DNA from: Escherichia phage vB_EcoM_PTE-Eco09
Direction: 5' to 3' (one strand)
Sequence record: PQ306574.1
DNA: 64,000 nucleotides
Below are positions 2,289-17,838 of this stretch, piece by piece. Every line of letters starts with the position of its first letter. Position 1 is the first letter of the stretch. The translations under genes were made by a program, and so were the position numbers. The notes under the pieces are model-generated. The model was given only the letters and a program-made list of their open reading frames with translations. It was not told the DNA's origin and did no database searches.

Positions 2289-3263
2289 ATGCTGAGTGTT
2301 AATGAAAATGAGTTTCAGTGGGAACAGAAATACCGTCCGAAATCAATTTCTGAATGTATTCTGCCGGAAGCAGATAAAAAGATCTTCGCGCAGATTGTTA
2401 AGCAAGGCCGAATCCCTTCAATGATTCTGCATAGCCCATCGCCGGGTACTGGTAAAACAACCGTTGCTAAGGCGCTTTGCGAAGATGTGGGTGTTGATTA
2501 TCTGTTTGTTAACGGCGCAGATTGTAAGATTGATTTTATCCGCGATGAGATTACACGCTTTGCGCAGAGTGTATCACTCGATGAAGAAAAAAGAGAAAAA
2601 GGCAAAGTTGTTATTATCGATGAGTATGACCGAGCGGGGTTGGCTGACGCTCAAAGACACTTGCGTAGTTTCTCTGAGGCATACTCAAACAATGTGACAT
2701 TCATTATCACAGCAAACGATCTAGAAGGTATTATCCCAGCGTTACGATCTCGATTTGACCCCATAACGTTTGGATCTCCGACTAAAGATGATCAGCTTCG
2801 CATGATGAAAGAAATGATCGTCCGGTGTAAAGCAATTCTTGATAAAGAAGGTGTGCCAGTAGAAGAAATGCGCGTATTAGCGGAACTGGTTAAACAGAAC
2901 TTCCCAGACTTCCGACGCGTAATGAAACTTTTGGACCGCTACGCTAAACATGGTAAAATTGATGCTGGCGTATTGAGCATGGTTATCGAAAGTAGCAATA
3001 CCGAAGTAACCGATGTGGTGGAAGCACTTAAAACTAAACAGTTTGCTAATGTGCGTAAACTTGCGCCGCGATATACCAATACATACGCTCAATTTGTCAA
3101 GAAACTTTATAATGAGTTGTATACTCAAGTTAAGCCAGCGTCTATTATTCGTCTGACCGAGATTATTGGTGAAAATAATCAGATGTTTGCACACGCGGCT
3201 GATAAAGAGATTCACATTGTCTTTTTGTTAATGCAATTAATGGTTGAATTGGAGTTCGTATAA
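2289..3263 (+). CDS. 44: clamp loader large subunit gp44 (AAA+)
   Basis: Walker A SPSPGTGKTT, DEYDR box, SRF motif; ATG at 2289 with RBS. The track ORF starts at an upstream GTG. Confidence 0.9.
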   Translation: MLSVNENEFQWEQKYRPKSISECILPEADKKIFAQIVKQGRIPSMILHSPSPGTGKTTVAKALCEDVGVDYLFVNGADCKIDFIRDEITRFAQSVSLDEEKREKGKVVIIDEYDRAGLADAQRHLRSFSEAYSNNVTFIITANDLEGIIPALRSRFDPITFGSPTKDDQLRMMKEMIVRCKAILDKEGVPVEEMRVLAELVKQNFPDFRRVMKLLDRYAKHGKIDAGVLSMVIESSNTEVTDVVEALKTKQFANVRKLAPRYTNTYAQFVKKLYNELYTQVKPASIIRLTEIIGENNQMFAHAADKEIHIVFLLMQLMVELEFV

Positions 3264-13849: not shown

Positions 13850-13863
13850 TTAATGAGGTGAAT

Positions 13864-14382
13864 ATGTCAGAATTTAATTCTTGTGCTGGTCTGGTTAACG
13901 AAAAAGATATTAACGCGGCTATCGCCGCATATCATCACGCTATTGCAGAAGGTAAAGATCCGTTTCAGGTGATGCTCGAAATGCAAACTGGTTTGCAGGT
14001 TGCATTATCCGAAAAATTTGATTGGGTCCCAAATCCAACTAAGCTAGAGACTTGCGGTGAAATGCTGGATTGGATGCAACGGATGGATGACGCTATCGCA
14101 GACGAAACACGAGAGCTTTACACATCGCTGGGTGGAATGTCCAATGGTAAAGATGCAAGTGCAATCTGGAAAATGTGGAAAAAGAACCACGGAGAAGCGC
14201 GAGCGCGTAAATTCTCTGAACTGTCACCGGAAGATCAGCTTGAAGTGAAATTTGAATTTGTGGACGCGATCCACTTCATTCTGTCAAAGATGATCCCGCT
14301 GGGTATTGACGCTCAAGAACTCTTTATTCTGTACTATCTGAAAAATGCTGAAAACTTCGCCCGTCAAGAACGCGGCTACTAA
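13864..14382 (+). CDS. putative dNTP pyrophosphatase (gp56 dCTPase-like)
   Basis: About 172 aa at the position where T4 has gene 56; acidic helical protein. Assignment tentative. Confidence 0.4.
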   Translation: MSEFNSCAGLVNEKDINAAIAAYHHAIAEGKDPFQVMLEMQTGLQVALSEKFDWVPNPTKLETCGEMLDWMQRMDDAIADETRELYTSLGGMSNGKDASAIWKMWKKNHGEARARKFSELSPEDQLEVKFEFVDAIHFILSKMIPLGIDAQELFILYYLKNAENFARQERGY

Positions 14383-14418
14383 AAATTAGTTGACACTACT
14401 CTATAATGGTTTTATTAT

Positions 14419-14451: not shown

Positions 14452-14955
14452 ATGCAATTTACACCAGAAGAACTTAACATCATTGATGAAGTGATGAACT
14501 CTAAAGAAAATATCGATATGTCGATCCTTAATGGATTGATTGAAAAGACTGAGCGGTTAGTGCATCATGAAGCCTTGTATCGCGGTGTGAGCAAAAGAGA
14601 AGGCCGTAAGCTGGATACCTTAATTGTGGGTGATTCTTTCGTTGTAGAGCGTCCTATGAGCTTTACGCCACTACAATCAACAGCAGAGGACTTTGCAACC
14701 GATGTTTATGCAACAGGAAAGATTATTGCAATAAAACCTACCAAGCCTTGCATGAATTATTACGAACATGCTATTGACCGAGTGGTGTCTAAAGAGTATG
14801 ACAATCCGACTACTCGACTGTCTTTGTATGCTATGTTGGCAGATGAGCGCGAGTGCATATACAAGACAGGGACGACCATGATCCTTGATGAGATCGAGGA
14901 AGTTTACGCGTGTAACGGCGATCTGATAGAGATTTACAAATTTTCTTTAATTTAA
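14452..14955 (+). CDS. putative ADP-ribosyltransferase (Mod/Alt-like, R-S-ExE type)
   Basis: Ordered motifs LYRG (Arg), SFT (STS-like) and ERE (ExE); located near dda where T4 has modA/modB. Confidence 0.5.
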   Translation: MQFTPEELNIIDEVMNSKENIDMSILNGLIEKTERLVHHEALYRGVSKREGRKLDTLIVGDSFVVERPMSFTPLQSTAEDFATDVYATGKIIAIKPTKPCMNYYEHAIDRVVSKEYDNPTTRLSLYAMLADERECIYKTGTTMILDEIEEVYACNGDLIEIYKFSLI

Positions 14956-14958
14956 GTG

Positions 14959-14987
14959 TTGACAGCACAAACCAGATAGACAATAAT
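14959..14987 (+). promoter_or_regulatory. sigma70-like early promoter
   Basis: TTGACA with an A/T-rich -10 17 nt downstream. Confidence 0.45.
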
Positions 14988-15016
14988 ACACACATACCAA
15001 CTAAGGAGAATCAATT

Positions 15017-15772
15017 ATGAAACTGTTTGCTTTTAAATCTAACGAAGAATTGGCGCTGGTTGTTTTCCGGCTGAACTCTATCATGGCTGGTGCTTCACGT
15101 CGCAACAAAGACTTCTCTATGAGCTTAGTCACTGTTCGTAACATTTACCGTCAGACTCATTGTGCCTATTCAGGTGAGGCTTTCGGTGAAGGTGATGACG
15201 GACTCTCCTTAGAGCGCATTGATTGCAATCTGGGATATGTTGATGGCAATGTAATTCCGGTTAAACTGAAATACAATTCTTTCCGTGGAAATCACACTAT
15301 CGAATCTCTTAAAGAGATCCAGGAACTGGGAACTAACGGTAAACTTTCTGATGATGAAATTGCCCTACGTGCGAAGTACATCGAGTGGATCGAACTTAAC
15401 GAGAATCGCATCAAAAATCAGGAAATGGCAATCGAAGAAAAGAAATTAGCAATCGAGCGCCACAAAAAGCACAACGAACCGGAGAAAGCAGAGGCAGCCG
15501 AGCGAGCGATTAAAAATACTCTCTTCCGTATGGAAGAACGTTATCAGAAAATTGCAGATCTCAAGCAAGCACTTAGCGAAATCAACAAGAAAGAAGAAAA
15601 ACTTAAGGCTATTGCAAACAATACCGAAATCGTGCTAAAATATACCAGCGTTTTGATTGAATCTCTTTCTAAGTATGAGAACTTAACGCCAGCACAAAAA
15701 GAACGCGTGAAATACGGGCTTCCGATTGATGCGTCGTGGATTGAATTGATGAAAGCGAAGGTAGGTTTATAA
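15017..15772 (+). CDS. hypothetical protein with degenerate HNH-like motif and long coiled-coil C-terminus
   Basis: HCAYSGEAF...LERIDCNLGYVDGNVIPV...NSFRGN resembles an HNH core with the catalytic His replaced; remainder charged and helical. Confidence 0.45.
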   Translation: MKLFAFKSNEELALVVFRLNSIMAGASRRNKDFSMSLVTVRNIYRQTHCAYSGEAFGEGDDGLSLERIDCNLGYVDGNVIPVKLKYNSFRGNHTIESLKEIQELGTNGKLSDDEIALRAKYIEWIELNENRIKNQEMAIEEKKLAIERHKKHNEPEKAEAAERAIKNTLFRMEERYQKIADLKQALSEINKKEEKLKAIANNTEIVLKYTSVLIESLSKYENLTPAQKERVKYGLPIDASWIELMKAKVGL

Positions 15773-16086
15773 TGCATGTATTTGCTGTATGTTATCGTGA
15801 TAAAGACGGATTCTTTCAATACTCAGTGGACGCGAAAGGTCGCGTCCTAACTTGCGAAACACATGATGCTGCGTTAGCGTCAATGTGTGATCAGATAGAT
15901 TATTGTGAGAGTCTATTGGCTGGTGAACCGAAATACAAGGTTGTACCTAAACGAAAATTTGGCATAATCCGGTCTTCTGAAATTGTTCGGGATGGTATCG
16001 AATATAAAATTCCTGAATATGAAAAAGAACGGGTACGGCGAGAACTCAATACTATCTGTGTTCGCAAGGTGAGGATTTTAGGATAA
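15772..16086 (+). CDS. hypothetical protein
   Basis: 104-aa ORF, ATGA overlap with neighbours. Confidence 0.45.
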   Translation: MHVFAVCYRDKDGFFQYSVDAKGRVLTCETHDAALASMCDQIDYCESLLAGEPKYKVVPKRKFGIIRSSEIVRDGIEYKIPEYEKERVRRELNTICVRKVRILG

Positions 16087-17477
16087 TGAGCAGAGTATTA
16101 ACTTTCGATATGTTAACAGACGGGCAAAAACATGCTTTTGATGTTCTAATGAAACGTATTGAACAAAAGAAGCATACAACTGTCCGTGGTGCGGCGGGTA
16201 CTGGTAAAACCGCAATGATGAAATTCATTGTTCAGGAAATGGTCCGCCGTGGTGTAACTGGTGTGGTTTTGGCAACGCCTACCCACCAGGCTAAAAAAGT
16301 TTTGAGTAAAGCGGTAGGTCGTCAAGCATTTACTTTACATGCACTACTGCGACTAAACCCGACCAACTATGAAGATACTCAAGTATTTGAGCAAAAAGAT
16401 ACTCCTAAGCTAGATGATGTTCAGATCATCATTGTTGATGAAGCGAGTATGGTCGATAAGAAACTATTTGATATTCTCATGAAGAGTATCAACGGTCGAA
16501 TTGTTATTATTGCCGTGGGTGATCTGTACCAGTTACGACCAGTTGATCCGAGCGGTGCAACGTCGATCTCTCCTTTCTTCACCGATGAAAGGTTTCAGAA
16601 TGTAGAACTTACAGAGATTAAACGATCTAATGCGCCAATAATTGATGTGGCGACCGCTGTCCGTAATGGTAAATGGGTATTCGAAAAGCAGTGCGGCAAC
16701 GAGGGTGTATTCCATAGCTCAACTCTGCCGGAGTTTATGAAGCATTATTTCGAAACCGTTAAAACGCCGGAAGACCTTCTAGAAAACCGTATTCTGGCCT
16801 ACACTAACAAGAGCGTCGAAAAACTCAATGAAATTGTGCGTAAGCGCGTTTATAACACCGATGAACCAGTGATTGTAGATGAAATTCTGGTTACTCAGGA
16901 ACCATTGATCGAATATCTGCGAGATGAACGCGGGAAGAAGATCCCCAATGTTATTTTTAACAATGGTGAGATGATCCGAGTTAAAGAGGTTATACCGCGC
17001 GAATTTACATTACGTTGCACGGGGGTAGATCCGCAACCAGTTTTAGGCTATACTCTGAAAGTGGAAAGCGTCGATGATGACGAAGACAAAGAAATCCTAA
17101 ATCAGAAAGTCGGTTTAGATACAGTCGGAATCACTACAGATAAACCGGATTTGGTAGAAATCAACATTCTGACAGAACAACGTCAGAAGAACATTTTCTC
17201 TATCTATCTGAATACGGTTGCCGGACAATATCGCGAAATGAAGAAAGAGAATCCAAAATTTAAACCAGATTGGGATTCATTCTGGACGATGAAGCGTATG
17301 TTCTTGAATGTAAAAGCATTACCAGCTTGCACCATTCATAAGTCACAAGGGATCAGCGTAGACCGCGTGTTCCTGTATACTCCTTGCATGTGTACAGACA
17401 ATGTTGACTTTGAATTGGCAATGCAGTTATTATATGTTGGTGTTACCCGTGCGAGGTATCGAGTAGACTATATTTGA
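16086..17477 (+). CDS. dda: DNA helicase Dda (SF1)
   Basis: 463 aa; Walker A GAAGTGKT, DEASM, QGISVDRVFLY; long match to remembered T4 Dda. Confidence 0.95.
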   Translation: MSRVLTFDMLTDGQKHAFDVLMKRIEQKKHTTVRGAAGTGKTAMMKFIVQEMVRRGVTGVVLATPTHQAKKVLSKAVGRQAFTLHALLRLNPTNYEDTQVFEQKDTPKLDDVQIIIVDEASMVDKKLFDILMKSINGRIVIIAVGDLYQLRPVDPSGATSISPFFTDERFQNVELTEIKRSNAPIIDVATAVRNGKWVFEKQCGNEGVFHSSTLPEFMKHYFETVKTPEDLLENRILAYTNKSVEKLNEIVRKRVYNTDEPVIVDEILVTQEPLIEYLRDERGKKIPNVIFNNGEMIRVKEVIPREFTLRCTGVDPQPVLGYTLKVESVDDDEDKEILNQKVGLDTVGITTDKPDLVEINILTEQRQKNIFSIYLNTVAGQYREMKKENPKFKPDWDSFWTMKRMFLNVKALPACTIHKSQGISVDRVFLYTPCMCTDNVDFELAMQLLYVGVTRARYRVDYI

Positions 17478-17487
17478 GGAAATTATT

Positions 17488-17655
17488 ATGATTATGCGAA
17501 GTATCCCCGAATTTGACGAAGTGACGGTACGCCGTCACAATGGAACTGTTACCATGTGTTTTAGTTGGGGTCATTATGGATGGAACGTATCCGGCGACAG
17601 TGAAGCTGAATGTATCAATAAAATGATCGAATATTTCACTAAGCGAGGGTTTTGA
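17488..17655 (+). CDS. hypothetical small protein
   Basis: 55 aa; C-terminus encoded by the repeat at 17611-17660. Confidence 0.35.
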   Translation: MIMRSIPEFDEVTVRRHNGTVTMCFSWGHYGWNVSGDSEAECINKMIEYFTKRGF

Positions 17656-17838
17656 TATGGCTAATGAAGCTAGAAGAAAGAAGAGTTTAGATACGCGGTG
17701 TAAGCCAACAATGACAAACGAACAGTTACAGGATTTTTTGGCCGTAGCTCTTAATTCGTCAAAAAAATCTCGTGACTACCAAGCTGTATGTATCAATAAA
17801 ATGTCAGAACATTCCACTAAGCGAGGGTTTTGATATGG
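17611..17838 (+). repeat. two copies of an approx. 50-bp direct repeat (17611-17660 and 17789-17838)
   Basis: TGTATCAATAAAATG...CACTAAGCGAGGGTTTTGATATGG repeated with about 5 mismatches. Confidence 0.7.
17657..17833 (+). CDS. hypothetical small protein
   Basis: 58 aa; C-terminus ...CINKMSEHSTKRGF parallels the preceding ORF. Confidence 0.35.
   Translation: MANEARRKKSLDTRCKPTMTNEQLQDFLAVALNSSKKSRDYQAVCINKMSEHSTKRGF

Follow-up and report, generated by a model that had tools for sequence, protein, structure and literature searches.

The open reading frame at 15017..15772 of the window (the whole 64,000-nucleotide stretch of DNA analysed here) is the Krischvirus orthologue of T4 srd, a known, annotated and ordinary T4-type early gene. 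We find that its protein starts with a predicted ββα-metal finger of the kind seen in the restriction enzyme PacI. The best explanation overall, and one that we consider probable, is an RNase E-stimulating Srd orthologue in which this PacI-type finger is the functional head, with a helical hairpin and a C-terminal motif providing contact, spacing or oligomerisation. The gene, its name and the phenotype of the T4 orthologue are already known. With respect to the literature searched, the assignment of the Srd head to the PacI clade appears to be new, as do the retention of PacI catalytic-type residues alongside the loss of both zinc sites, and the size of the related, largely zinc-less family that has no Pfam model. 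In that literature no paper was found that joins Srd, phage T4 and HNH; no fold or domain had been assigned to Srd, and its mechanism had not been worked out.

The srd gene and its locus

The sequence-only reading had quoted residues from this open reading frame, and both the residues and the gene are real: a 251-aa protein is encoded, preceded by a promoter-like site and a ribosome-binding site. The gene and its surroundings are as follows.

13858..14382, plus strand: MazG/dUTPase_2-like NTP pyrophosphohydrolase, 174 aa (PHROG 173, 5e-37; Pfam dUTPase_2, 3e-05)
14452..14955, plus strand: Mod-like ADP-ribosyltransferase, 167 aa, upstream neighbour (PHROG 832, 1e-20)
14959..14987, plus strand: sigma70-like promoter candidate TTGACA-17-AATAAT upstream of srd (consensus scan, 11/12 matches)
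15003..15008, plus strand: Shine-Dalgarno AAGGAG, 8 nt 5' of the srd ATG (read from the sequence)
15017..15772, stop codon included, plus strand: srd orthologue, ATG start, 251 aa (list of open reading frames)
15772..16086, plus strand: dda.1 (Y01A family), 104 aa, downstream neighbour (Pfam Phage_Y01A, 7.4e-21)
16086..17477, plus strand: dda helicase, 463 aa (Pfam AAA_30, 2e-29, and Dda SH3, 5e-15; PHROG 325, 2e-154)

The order in the window, from primase through the MazG-like NTP pyrophosphohydrolase, the Mod-like ADP-ribosyltransferase, srd and dda.1 to dda, is the order of T4. The MazG-like gene is placed between the primase and the mod-like gene, and T4 has gene 56 (dCTPase) in the corresponding region. 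The mod-like gene takes the same relative position as T4 modA/modB. Its product is recognised by PHROG 832 only, with no Pfam ADP-ribosyltransferase match, and is short compared with the about 200 aa of T4 ModA/ModB; the gene has a sigma70-like promoter candidate of its own at 14390..14418. The promoter candidate of srd falls within the 61-nt gap between the mod-like gene and srd. By analogy with T4 the srd orthologue would be expressed early, the promoter itself being a consensus match alone. The srd stop and the dda.1 start overlap (TAATG, window 15770..15774, as read from the sequence) and the end of dda.1 overlaps the start of dda at window position 16086, which suggests that srd, dda.1 and dda are translationally coupled. 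Just 3' of dda are two adjacent open reading frames of 55 and 58 aa (17488..17655 and 17657..17833, plus strand). Their C-termini are near-identical (…ECINKMIEYFTKRGF and …AVCINKMSEHSTKRGF) and the pair resembles a tandem duplication of a small gene.

At the DNA level the window shares 99% identity with Krischvirus (RB49-like, T4-type) coliphages; the protein has the same sequence (100% identity) as the Srd annotated 'anti-sigma factor' in Escherichia phage GoldenSnicker (Krischvirus). Residues 8-248 match PHROG 1400 'Srd anti-sigma factor' (6.4e-74), and BLASTP against T4 Srd (NP_049634, 'Similarity with rpoD') gives 32% identity over residues 8-247 (E 1e-28). The two proteins are full-length homologues (248 aa in T4) with an equal locus position, and they have in common the motifs CAYSG, SLER(I/F)D, GY, GNVI and YN..R as well as the C-terminal NLS..DK.KLK.G.P. 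In contrast, the alignment is poor and rich in gaps over the central helices, and residue 48 is His in the Krischvirus protein against Val in T4 Srd. Residues E66, R67, Y74 and N87 are equivalent to E64, R65, Y72 and N85 of T4 Srd.

A srd homologue is present in 1173 phage records (tblastn). The order mod–srd–dda.1–dda is found in T4, GoldenSnicker, CHI14, Acj133, PKO111, JS10, phiR1-RT and CF-SP2; besides T4 itself, seven of the nine T4-like genomes inspected, from several genera, have srd between mod and dda.1. The exceptions are an Acinetobacter Lazarusvirus, with extra open reading frames between srd and dda, and Vibrio phage D479, in which the neighbours of srd differ. In this 258 kb phage the gene of a short Srd-like protein (191 aa, 2390..2965) follows that of a cytidyltransferase; neither mod nor dda lies close by, and the protein is without most of the C-terminal GLPL motif.

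T4-like genomes contain many HNH and GIY-YIG homing endonucleases, and the protein has secondary PHROG matches to 'HNH endonuclease' families (2.7e-12 and 1.2e-10). A free-standing homing or selfish HNH endonuclease that lies near dda by chance is nevertheless very improbable given the fixed locus, the large number of records with a homologue and the coupling to dda.1 suggested by the overlap. Moreover, the conserved coiled coil and C-terminal motif are unrelated to homing enzymes. Since a sporadic, insertion-like distribution was not seen in the genomes inspected, we rejected the homing endonuclease on synteny.

The N-terminal finger domain and its relatives

To describe the protein we used an AlphaFold2 (AF2) model built on an alignment of 59 Srd family sequences, which is confident (pLDDT 93.2, pTM 0.75). 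Three features concern the N-terminal part.

15041..15337, plus strand: predicted N-terminal PacI-type His-Me finger domain, residues ~9-107 (helices, vestigial zinc knuckle, ββα core)
15158..15175, plus strand: HCAYSG, residues 48-53, remnant of the first CxxC knuckle (alignment to PacI and zinc-containing relatives)
15203..15286, plus strand: predicted ββα core, residues 63-90 (DSSP on the models; gapless PacI register)

In the model the finger consists of helices 9-28 and 37-45, strands 63-67 and 79-83, and helices 84-90 and 95-107; the remainder of the protein forms helices 112-151, 155-221, 225-232 and 241-250. The finger domain is thus made up of two N-terminal helices, the vestigial zinc knuckle, the ββα core and a closing helix (95-107). 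Within the core we distinguish the strand LSLER, the loop IDCNLGYVDGN, the strand VIPVK and the helix LKYNSFR. The antiparallel strands, loop and helix that characterise the His-Me finger (HNH) superfamily are therefore all present, together with a helical (HTH-like) region N-terminal to the finger that is homologous to that of PacI. An HNH-like ββα core had been proposed from the letters and the predicted structure bears this out, so that the outcome named there as refuting it, a prediction without such a fold, did not arise; the long helical region said to follow the finger also exists, as helices 112-151 and 155-221.

Direct sequence searches of the PDB were weak. The single protein returned coiled-coil noise only, and the profile of the N-terminal domain gave a single weak match, to the HNH endonuclease 4H9D (E 1.7). 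The alignment is sensible: R67 is aligned with the His of the 4H9D 'DH' motif, and likewise with PacI R93. Pfam scans of the whole protein, the N-terminal domain, 13 family members and 10 distant relatives revealed neither HNH nor any other significant family (best match a faint HNH_5, 0.034, on a dinoflagellate protein), and the NCBIfam scan gave no match. The link between Srd and PacI needed zinc-containing intermediates.

Such relatives were obtained with profiles. A single-sequence word-index search retrieved 7 homologues and a profile of diverse phage Srd proteins 65, while the exhaustive HMMER search with the profile of the Srd N-terminal domain yielded 23,053 cluster representatives at E<=0.001 (1,934 at E<=1e-10). 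Some of the best 150 of these, such as P0177 and P0184 (~1e-18), retain the full cysteine set, as does P0065 from an earlier search. Their common pattern is C-x-Y-C-G … G-(L/I/V)-D-R-(I/L)-D-x3-G-Y-x3-N-x4-C-x2-C-N-x2-(K/R). Comparing the Srd profile with the profile of the zinc-type relatives gives a probability of 99.4% (E 2.9e-21, 81 columns). The zinc-type profile, prepared without any Srd sequence, in turn matches PacI residues 30-125 at 4e-7, with ordinary HNH domains ranking next; P0065 alone matches PacI at 0.004, and the Srd profile is aligned to a PacI fragment at 3e-5. When the six frames of the window are scanned with the zinc-type profile, our open reading frame is the sole match (4.6e-11) and no second copy of the Srd/PacI-like domain is seen.

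The resulting register is gapless. The Srd core reads E66 R67 I D69 C N L G73 Y74 V D G N78 V I P V K L K Y N87 S F R90 and the PacI core D92 R93 S D95 S F E G99 Y100 S P Q N104 A R L A C F I C N113 R I K116, so that the Srd/PacI pairs are E66/D92, R67/R93, G73/G99, Y74/Y100, N78/N104, N87/N113 and R90/K116. We regard E66, R67, Y74, N78, N87 and R90 as the putative active-site residues of Srd. Conservation was counted in the 59-sequence Srd alignment (mean identity 25%), in which E66, R67, Y74, N78 and N87 are invariant; N78, at the start of strand 2, corresponds to the structural Asn of PacI, and N87, in the helix, to its metal-binding Asn. A wider set of 264 domain copies from 193 proteins, including both Srd and non-Srd proteins, shows nearly the same picture: the Arg of R67 is found in 262 copies, Asn78 in 263, the Tyr of Y74 in 256, Asn87 in 254, and Glu or Asp at the E66 position in 257.

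The position at the end of strand 1 where the canonical catalytic His is expected is thus occupied by Arg67 in all 59 Srd sequences, in agreement with the altered His (ERID) pointed out by the sequence-only reading. By alignment, the metal-ligand positions of the superfamily (an acidic residue before the His position and an Asn in the helix) correspond to E66 and N87. Srd also has the combination that marks the PacI clade, 'DR' in place of 'DH' plus a loop Tyr, in the form E66-R67…G73-Y74 with a conservative change of Asp to Glu. Given the near-invariance of the Arg over the 264 copies, the replacement of His is ancestral and clade-defining. Judged from these alignments, it is a mark of the PacI clade, and not a sign of recent inactivation or of decay specific to Srd. 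The earlier term 'inactivated nuclease' is consequently unsupported as it stood, the Arg being a signature of a clade in which PacI is active by means of its loop Tyr.

By the same comparisons, the part of Srd that has degenerated is the zinc scaffold, with both Cys4 sites lost. HCAYSG matches H62-C-G-Y-C-G67 of PacI with the second Cys changed to Ser, and C49, A50, Y51, S52 and G53 are invariant in the 59 Srd sequences. The two zinc sites would require four cysteines each; in Srd the corresponding stretches read C49-x-x-S52 and K83-x-x-Y86-N87 and no further Cys is conserved, whereas the relatives P0065, P0177 and P0184 retain CxxC…CCxxCN. H48, beside the first Cys and corresponding to PacI H62, is His in 53 of the 59 Srd sequences and Val in T4. 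The additional active-site His of PacI, which we take to be H42, falls near R29/K31 of Srd, in a helix where the alignment is uncertain.

Activity, RNase E and the anti-sigma label

Papers that cite Qi et al. 2015 describe T4 Srd as a partner of RNase E which associates with its catalytic N-terminal half and stimulates the degradation of host mRNA; Srd has also been discussed there as a possible RapZ-like activator of RNase E. A 2026 preprint describes Srd solely by its RNase E association and host mRNA degradation, and counts the srd and dda.1 transcripts among the most abundant NAD-capped T4 RNAs. Of the NAD-capped phage RNAs in T4, the dda.1 transcript is reportedly the most abundant. For the Krischvirus protein we expect the same function, RNase E stimulation, by orthology at 32% identity, the binding having been reported for T4 alone. 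No other phage factor is known to stimulate RNase E.

This bears on the databases' 'anti-sigma factor' label and on the suggestion, made from the letters, of a repurposed domain with RNA polymerase subunits as partner. A dead HNH domain could serve as a pure protein- or DNA-binding module on RNA polymerase, either as an anti-sigma factor or as a decoy for sigma. In favour of this are the missing canonical His, the loss of the zinc ligands and the existence of inactive His-Me fingers that only bind (SMAD MH1); in addition, residues 89-118 of T4 Srd share 13 of 30 residues with E. coli RpoD 569-598 in sigma70 region 4.2 (pairwise E 0.008). This resemblance is presumably the origin of the names 'Similarity with rpoD' and 'anti-sigma factor'. 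The 30-residue stretch is, however, not conserved in the Krischvirus protein or across the family: hhalign finds no detectable similarity between the 59-sequence Srd profile and RpoD (probability 0.2%), and 13 Srd members have no Sigma70 Pfam domain at E up to 10. On these grounds a sigma70 decoy was rejected as a family property. For the T4 orthologue, the partner demonstrated according to the citing papers is RNase E, and invariance at exactly the catalytic positions of PacI would be unexpected in a pure docking module. In the literature searched we found no experiment on Srd binding to RNA polymerase core or a sigma factor. Altogether we judge the dead module on RNA polymerase quite unlikely and its subunits probably the wrong target.

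More weight should be given to the question whether the finger still cuts. Reviews describe PacI as being without the usual catalytic His, with an inter-strand loop tyrosine acting as general base or nucleophile and a single metal held by one Asp and one Asn. A later paper gives the catalytic residues of PacI as 'H, DR and CxxCN' plus the tyrosine after the DR motif, and states that cysteine-bound zinc is required for PacI cleavage. In the classification of Jablonska et al. 2017, PacI belongs to 'group 20' of the His-Me superfamily, a small group made up mostly of giant-virus proteins, and the truly inactive groups (SMAD MH1, ENPP) are without both His and Tyr.

Srd could be a His-Me nuclease or nickase that is active on RNA or DNA without zinc and by means of its tyrosine; the dependence of its effect on RNase E would then come from later processing of the cleaved products or from a coupled complex. 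We consider this rather unlikely. Most PacI catalytic positions are invariant in Srd and nearly so in the 264 related copies, and the Tyr, which like the His is absent from the inactive fingers (SMAD MH1 and the ENPP nuclease-like domain), is kept. Many His-Me nucleases function without structural zinc, and HNH cleavage leaves 5'-phosphates, which are stimulators of RNase E. Set against this are the zinc requirement described for PacI, given that Srd has no zinc sites, the Glu in place of the metal-binding Asp, and the extra catalytic His of PacI, which has no secured equivalent in Srd and of which the neighbouring candidate, residue 48, is Val in T4. Furthermore, cells defective in RNase E reportedly show no Srd-stimulated decay, and RppH is said to have still been needed for a triphosphorylated substrate; these two dependences argue against Srd making the entry cuts itself. 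Catalytic competence of Srd, taken by itself, we likewise hold to be rather unlikely.

The boldest form of the idea would place Srd, as a functioning enzyme and no passive activator, in a zinc-less branch of the PacI-type tyrosine-dependent nucleases that is very large and has gone unrecognised, its E66/R67/Y74/N87 site cutting or covalently engaging RNA (or DNA) in a complex with RNase E. We hold this to be improbable too, at a similar level; if true, it would account for the immediate collapse of host mRNA that T4-like phages bring about.

The preferred reading, an RNase E stimulator with a PacI-type head, gives the finger a part in binding. It would be the working head of the protein, one that binds phosphate, metal or nucleic acid (RNA being most plausible) at or next to RNase E. 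The finger domain of Krischvirus Srd is not basic (pI 6.7), which counts against this reading in that it gives little support to nucleic-acid binding. Also to be set against it are the distance of 32% identity to the T4 orthologue, the zinc described as necessary for PacI cleavage, for which Srd has no sites, and the additional His of PacI, for which no counterpart could be placed securely. The hairpin and the C-terminal motif may supply RNase E contact, spacing or oligomerisation, by which Srd would be an activator or adaptor of RNase E in host takeover. What the analysis itself establishes is the identity of the gene, its orthology, the fold, and the correspondence of residues with their conservation; RNase E binding and mRNA destabilisation are known from reports on the T4 orthologue, and we infer both the part of Srd that is in contact with RNase E and a role of the finger in binding instead of cutting. 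The remainder of the protein comprises two features.

15350..15679, plus strand: predicted helical hairpin / coiled coil, helices 112-151 and 155-221 (AF2 secondary structure)
15671..15760, plus strand: conserved C-terminal motif, residues 219-248 (column counts, 59-sequence alignment)

Residues 112-221 are 39% charged, and family members (218 to 344 aa) have their indels in this region as well as spurious coiled-coil Pfam matches. By their length and Foldseek neighbours, the two long helices are predicted to form an antiparallel hairpin. A full-length Foldseek search of the PDB lists, after PacI, XaxA, AhlC, p85 iSH2, HP0958 and Rad50; these are generic helical hairpins and none is significant, so neither the hairpin nor the C-terminal motif can be assigned to a family of folds. 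The motif reads (K/R)FENLS..DK.KLK.G-L-P-L..S…L.K.K, with G234 invariant, and is predicted to form helices 225-232 and 241-250. As the return helix is longer than the outgoing helix, this hairpin topology would probably bring the motif near the finger domain.

The destruction of host mRNA by T4-type phages within minutes is an old question. Our finding overturns nothing in it, but it makes the mechanism of Srd directly testable: E66, R67, Y74 and N87 are precise mutation targets for separating RNase E binding, nucleic-acid binding and catalysis. The 'anti-sigma factor' label still used by the databases presumably rests on a 30-residue resemblance that the family does not conserve.

Comparison with known systems

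The related family includes many uncharacterised phage and giant-virus proteins. Among its members are long proteins (P0066, P0098, P0106, P0116 and P0121) with 2-4 tandem zinc-less copies of the Srd/PacI-like domain; ahead of each copy is a CxxC…CxxC module whose Stc1-like Pfam matches are weak and below threshold. The protein with 4 copies (P0066) is from the dinoflagellate Polarella glacialis. Among the members scanned, neither Pfam nor NCBIfam has a family that covers the repeated domain. The PacI chemistry of Arg for His plus a loop Tyr would thus not be confined to one restriction enzyme and a few giant-virus proteins; PacI appears as the edge of a very large family, of which a major branch has dispensed with zinc.

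Compared with RapZ, the likeness lies in what is reported of T4 Srd: according to the citing papers it binds, like RapZ, the N-terminal half of RNase E and stimulates cleavage. No sequence or fold relationship between RapZ and Srd emerged in any search made, and whereas RapZ presents one specific sRNA, Srd is reported by those papers to act broadly on host mRNAs. The SMAD MH1 and ENPP1-3 nuclease-like domains resemble Srd in having a ββα-metal fold without the canonical His, used in roles other than DNA cleavage. They differ in that they are without both His and Tyr, while in Srd the Tyr and both metal-ligand positions are retained and invariant. PacI itself (PDB 3LDY/3M7K) is a 142-aa homodimeric DNA restriction enzyme with two Cys4 zinc sites against none in Srd, where one of the eight Cys positions is kept, and with Asp at the position of the Srd Glu. 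In Srd, a nuclease only putatively, the predicted fold adds to the shared finger a helical hairpin of ~110 aa and a C-terminal motif, and the known biology of the protein is that of RNase E and mRNA.
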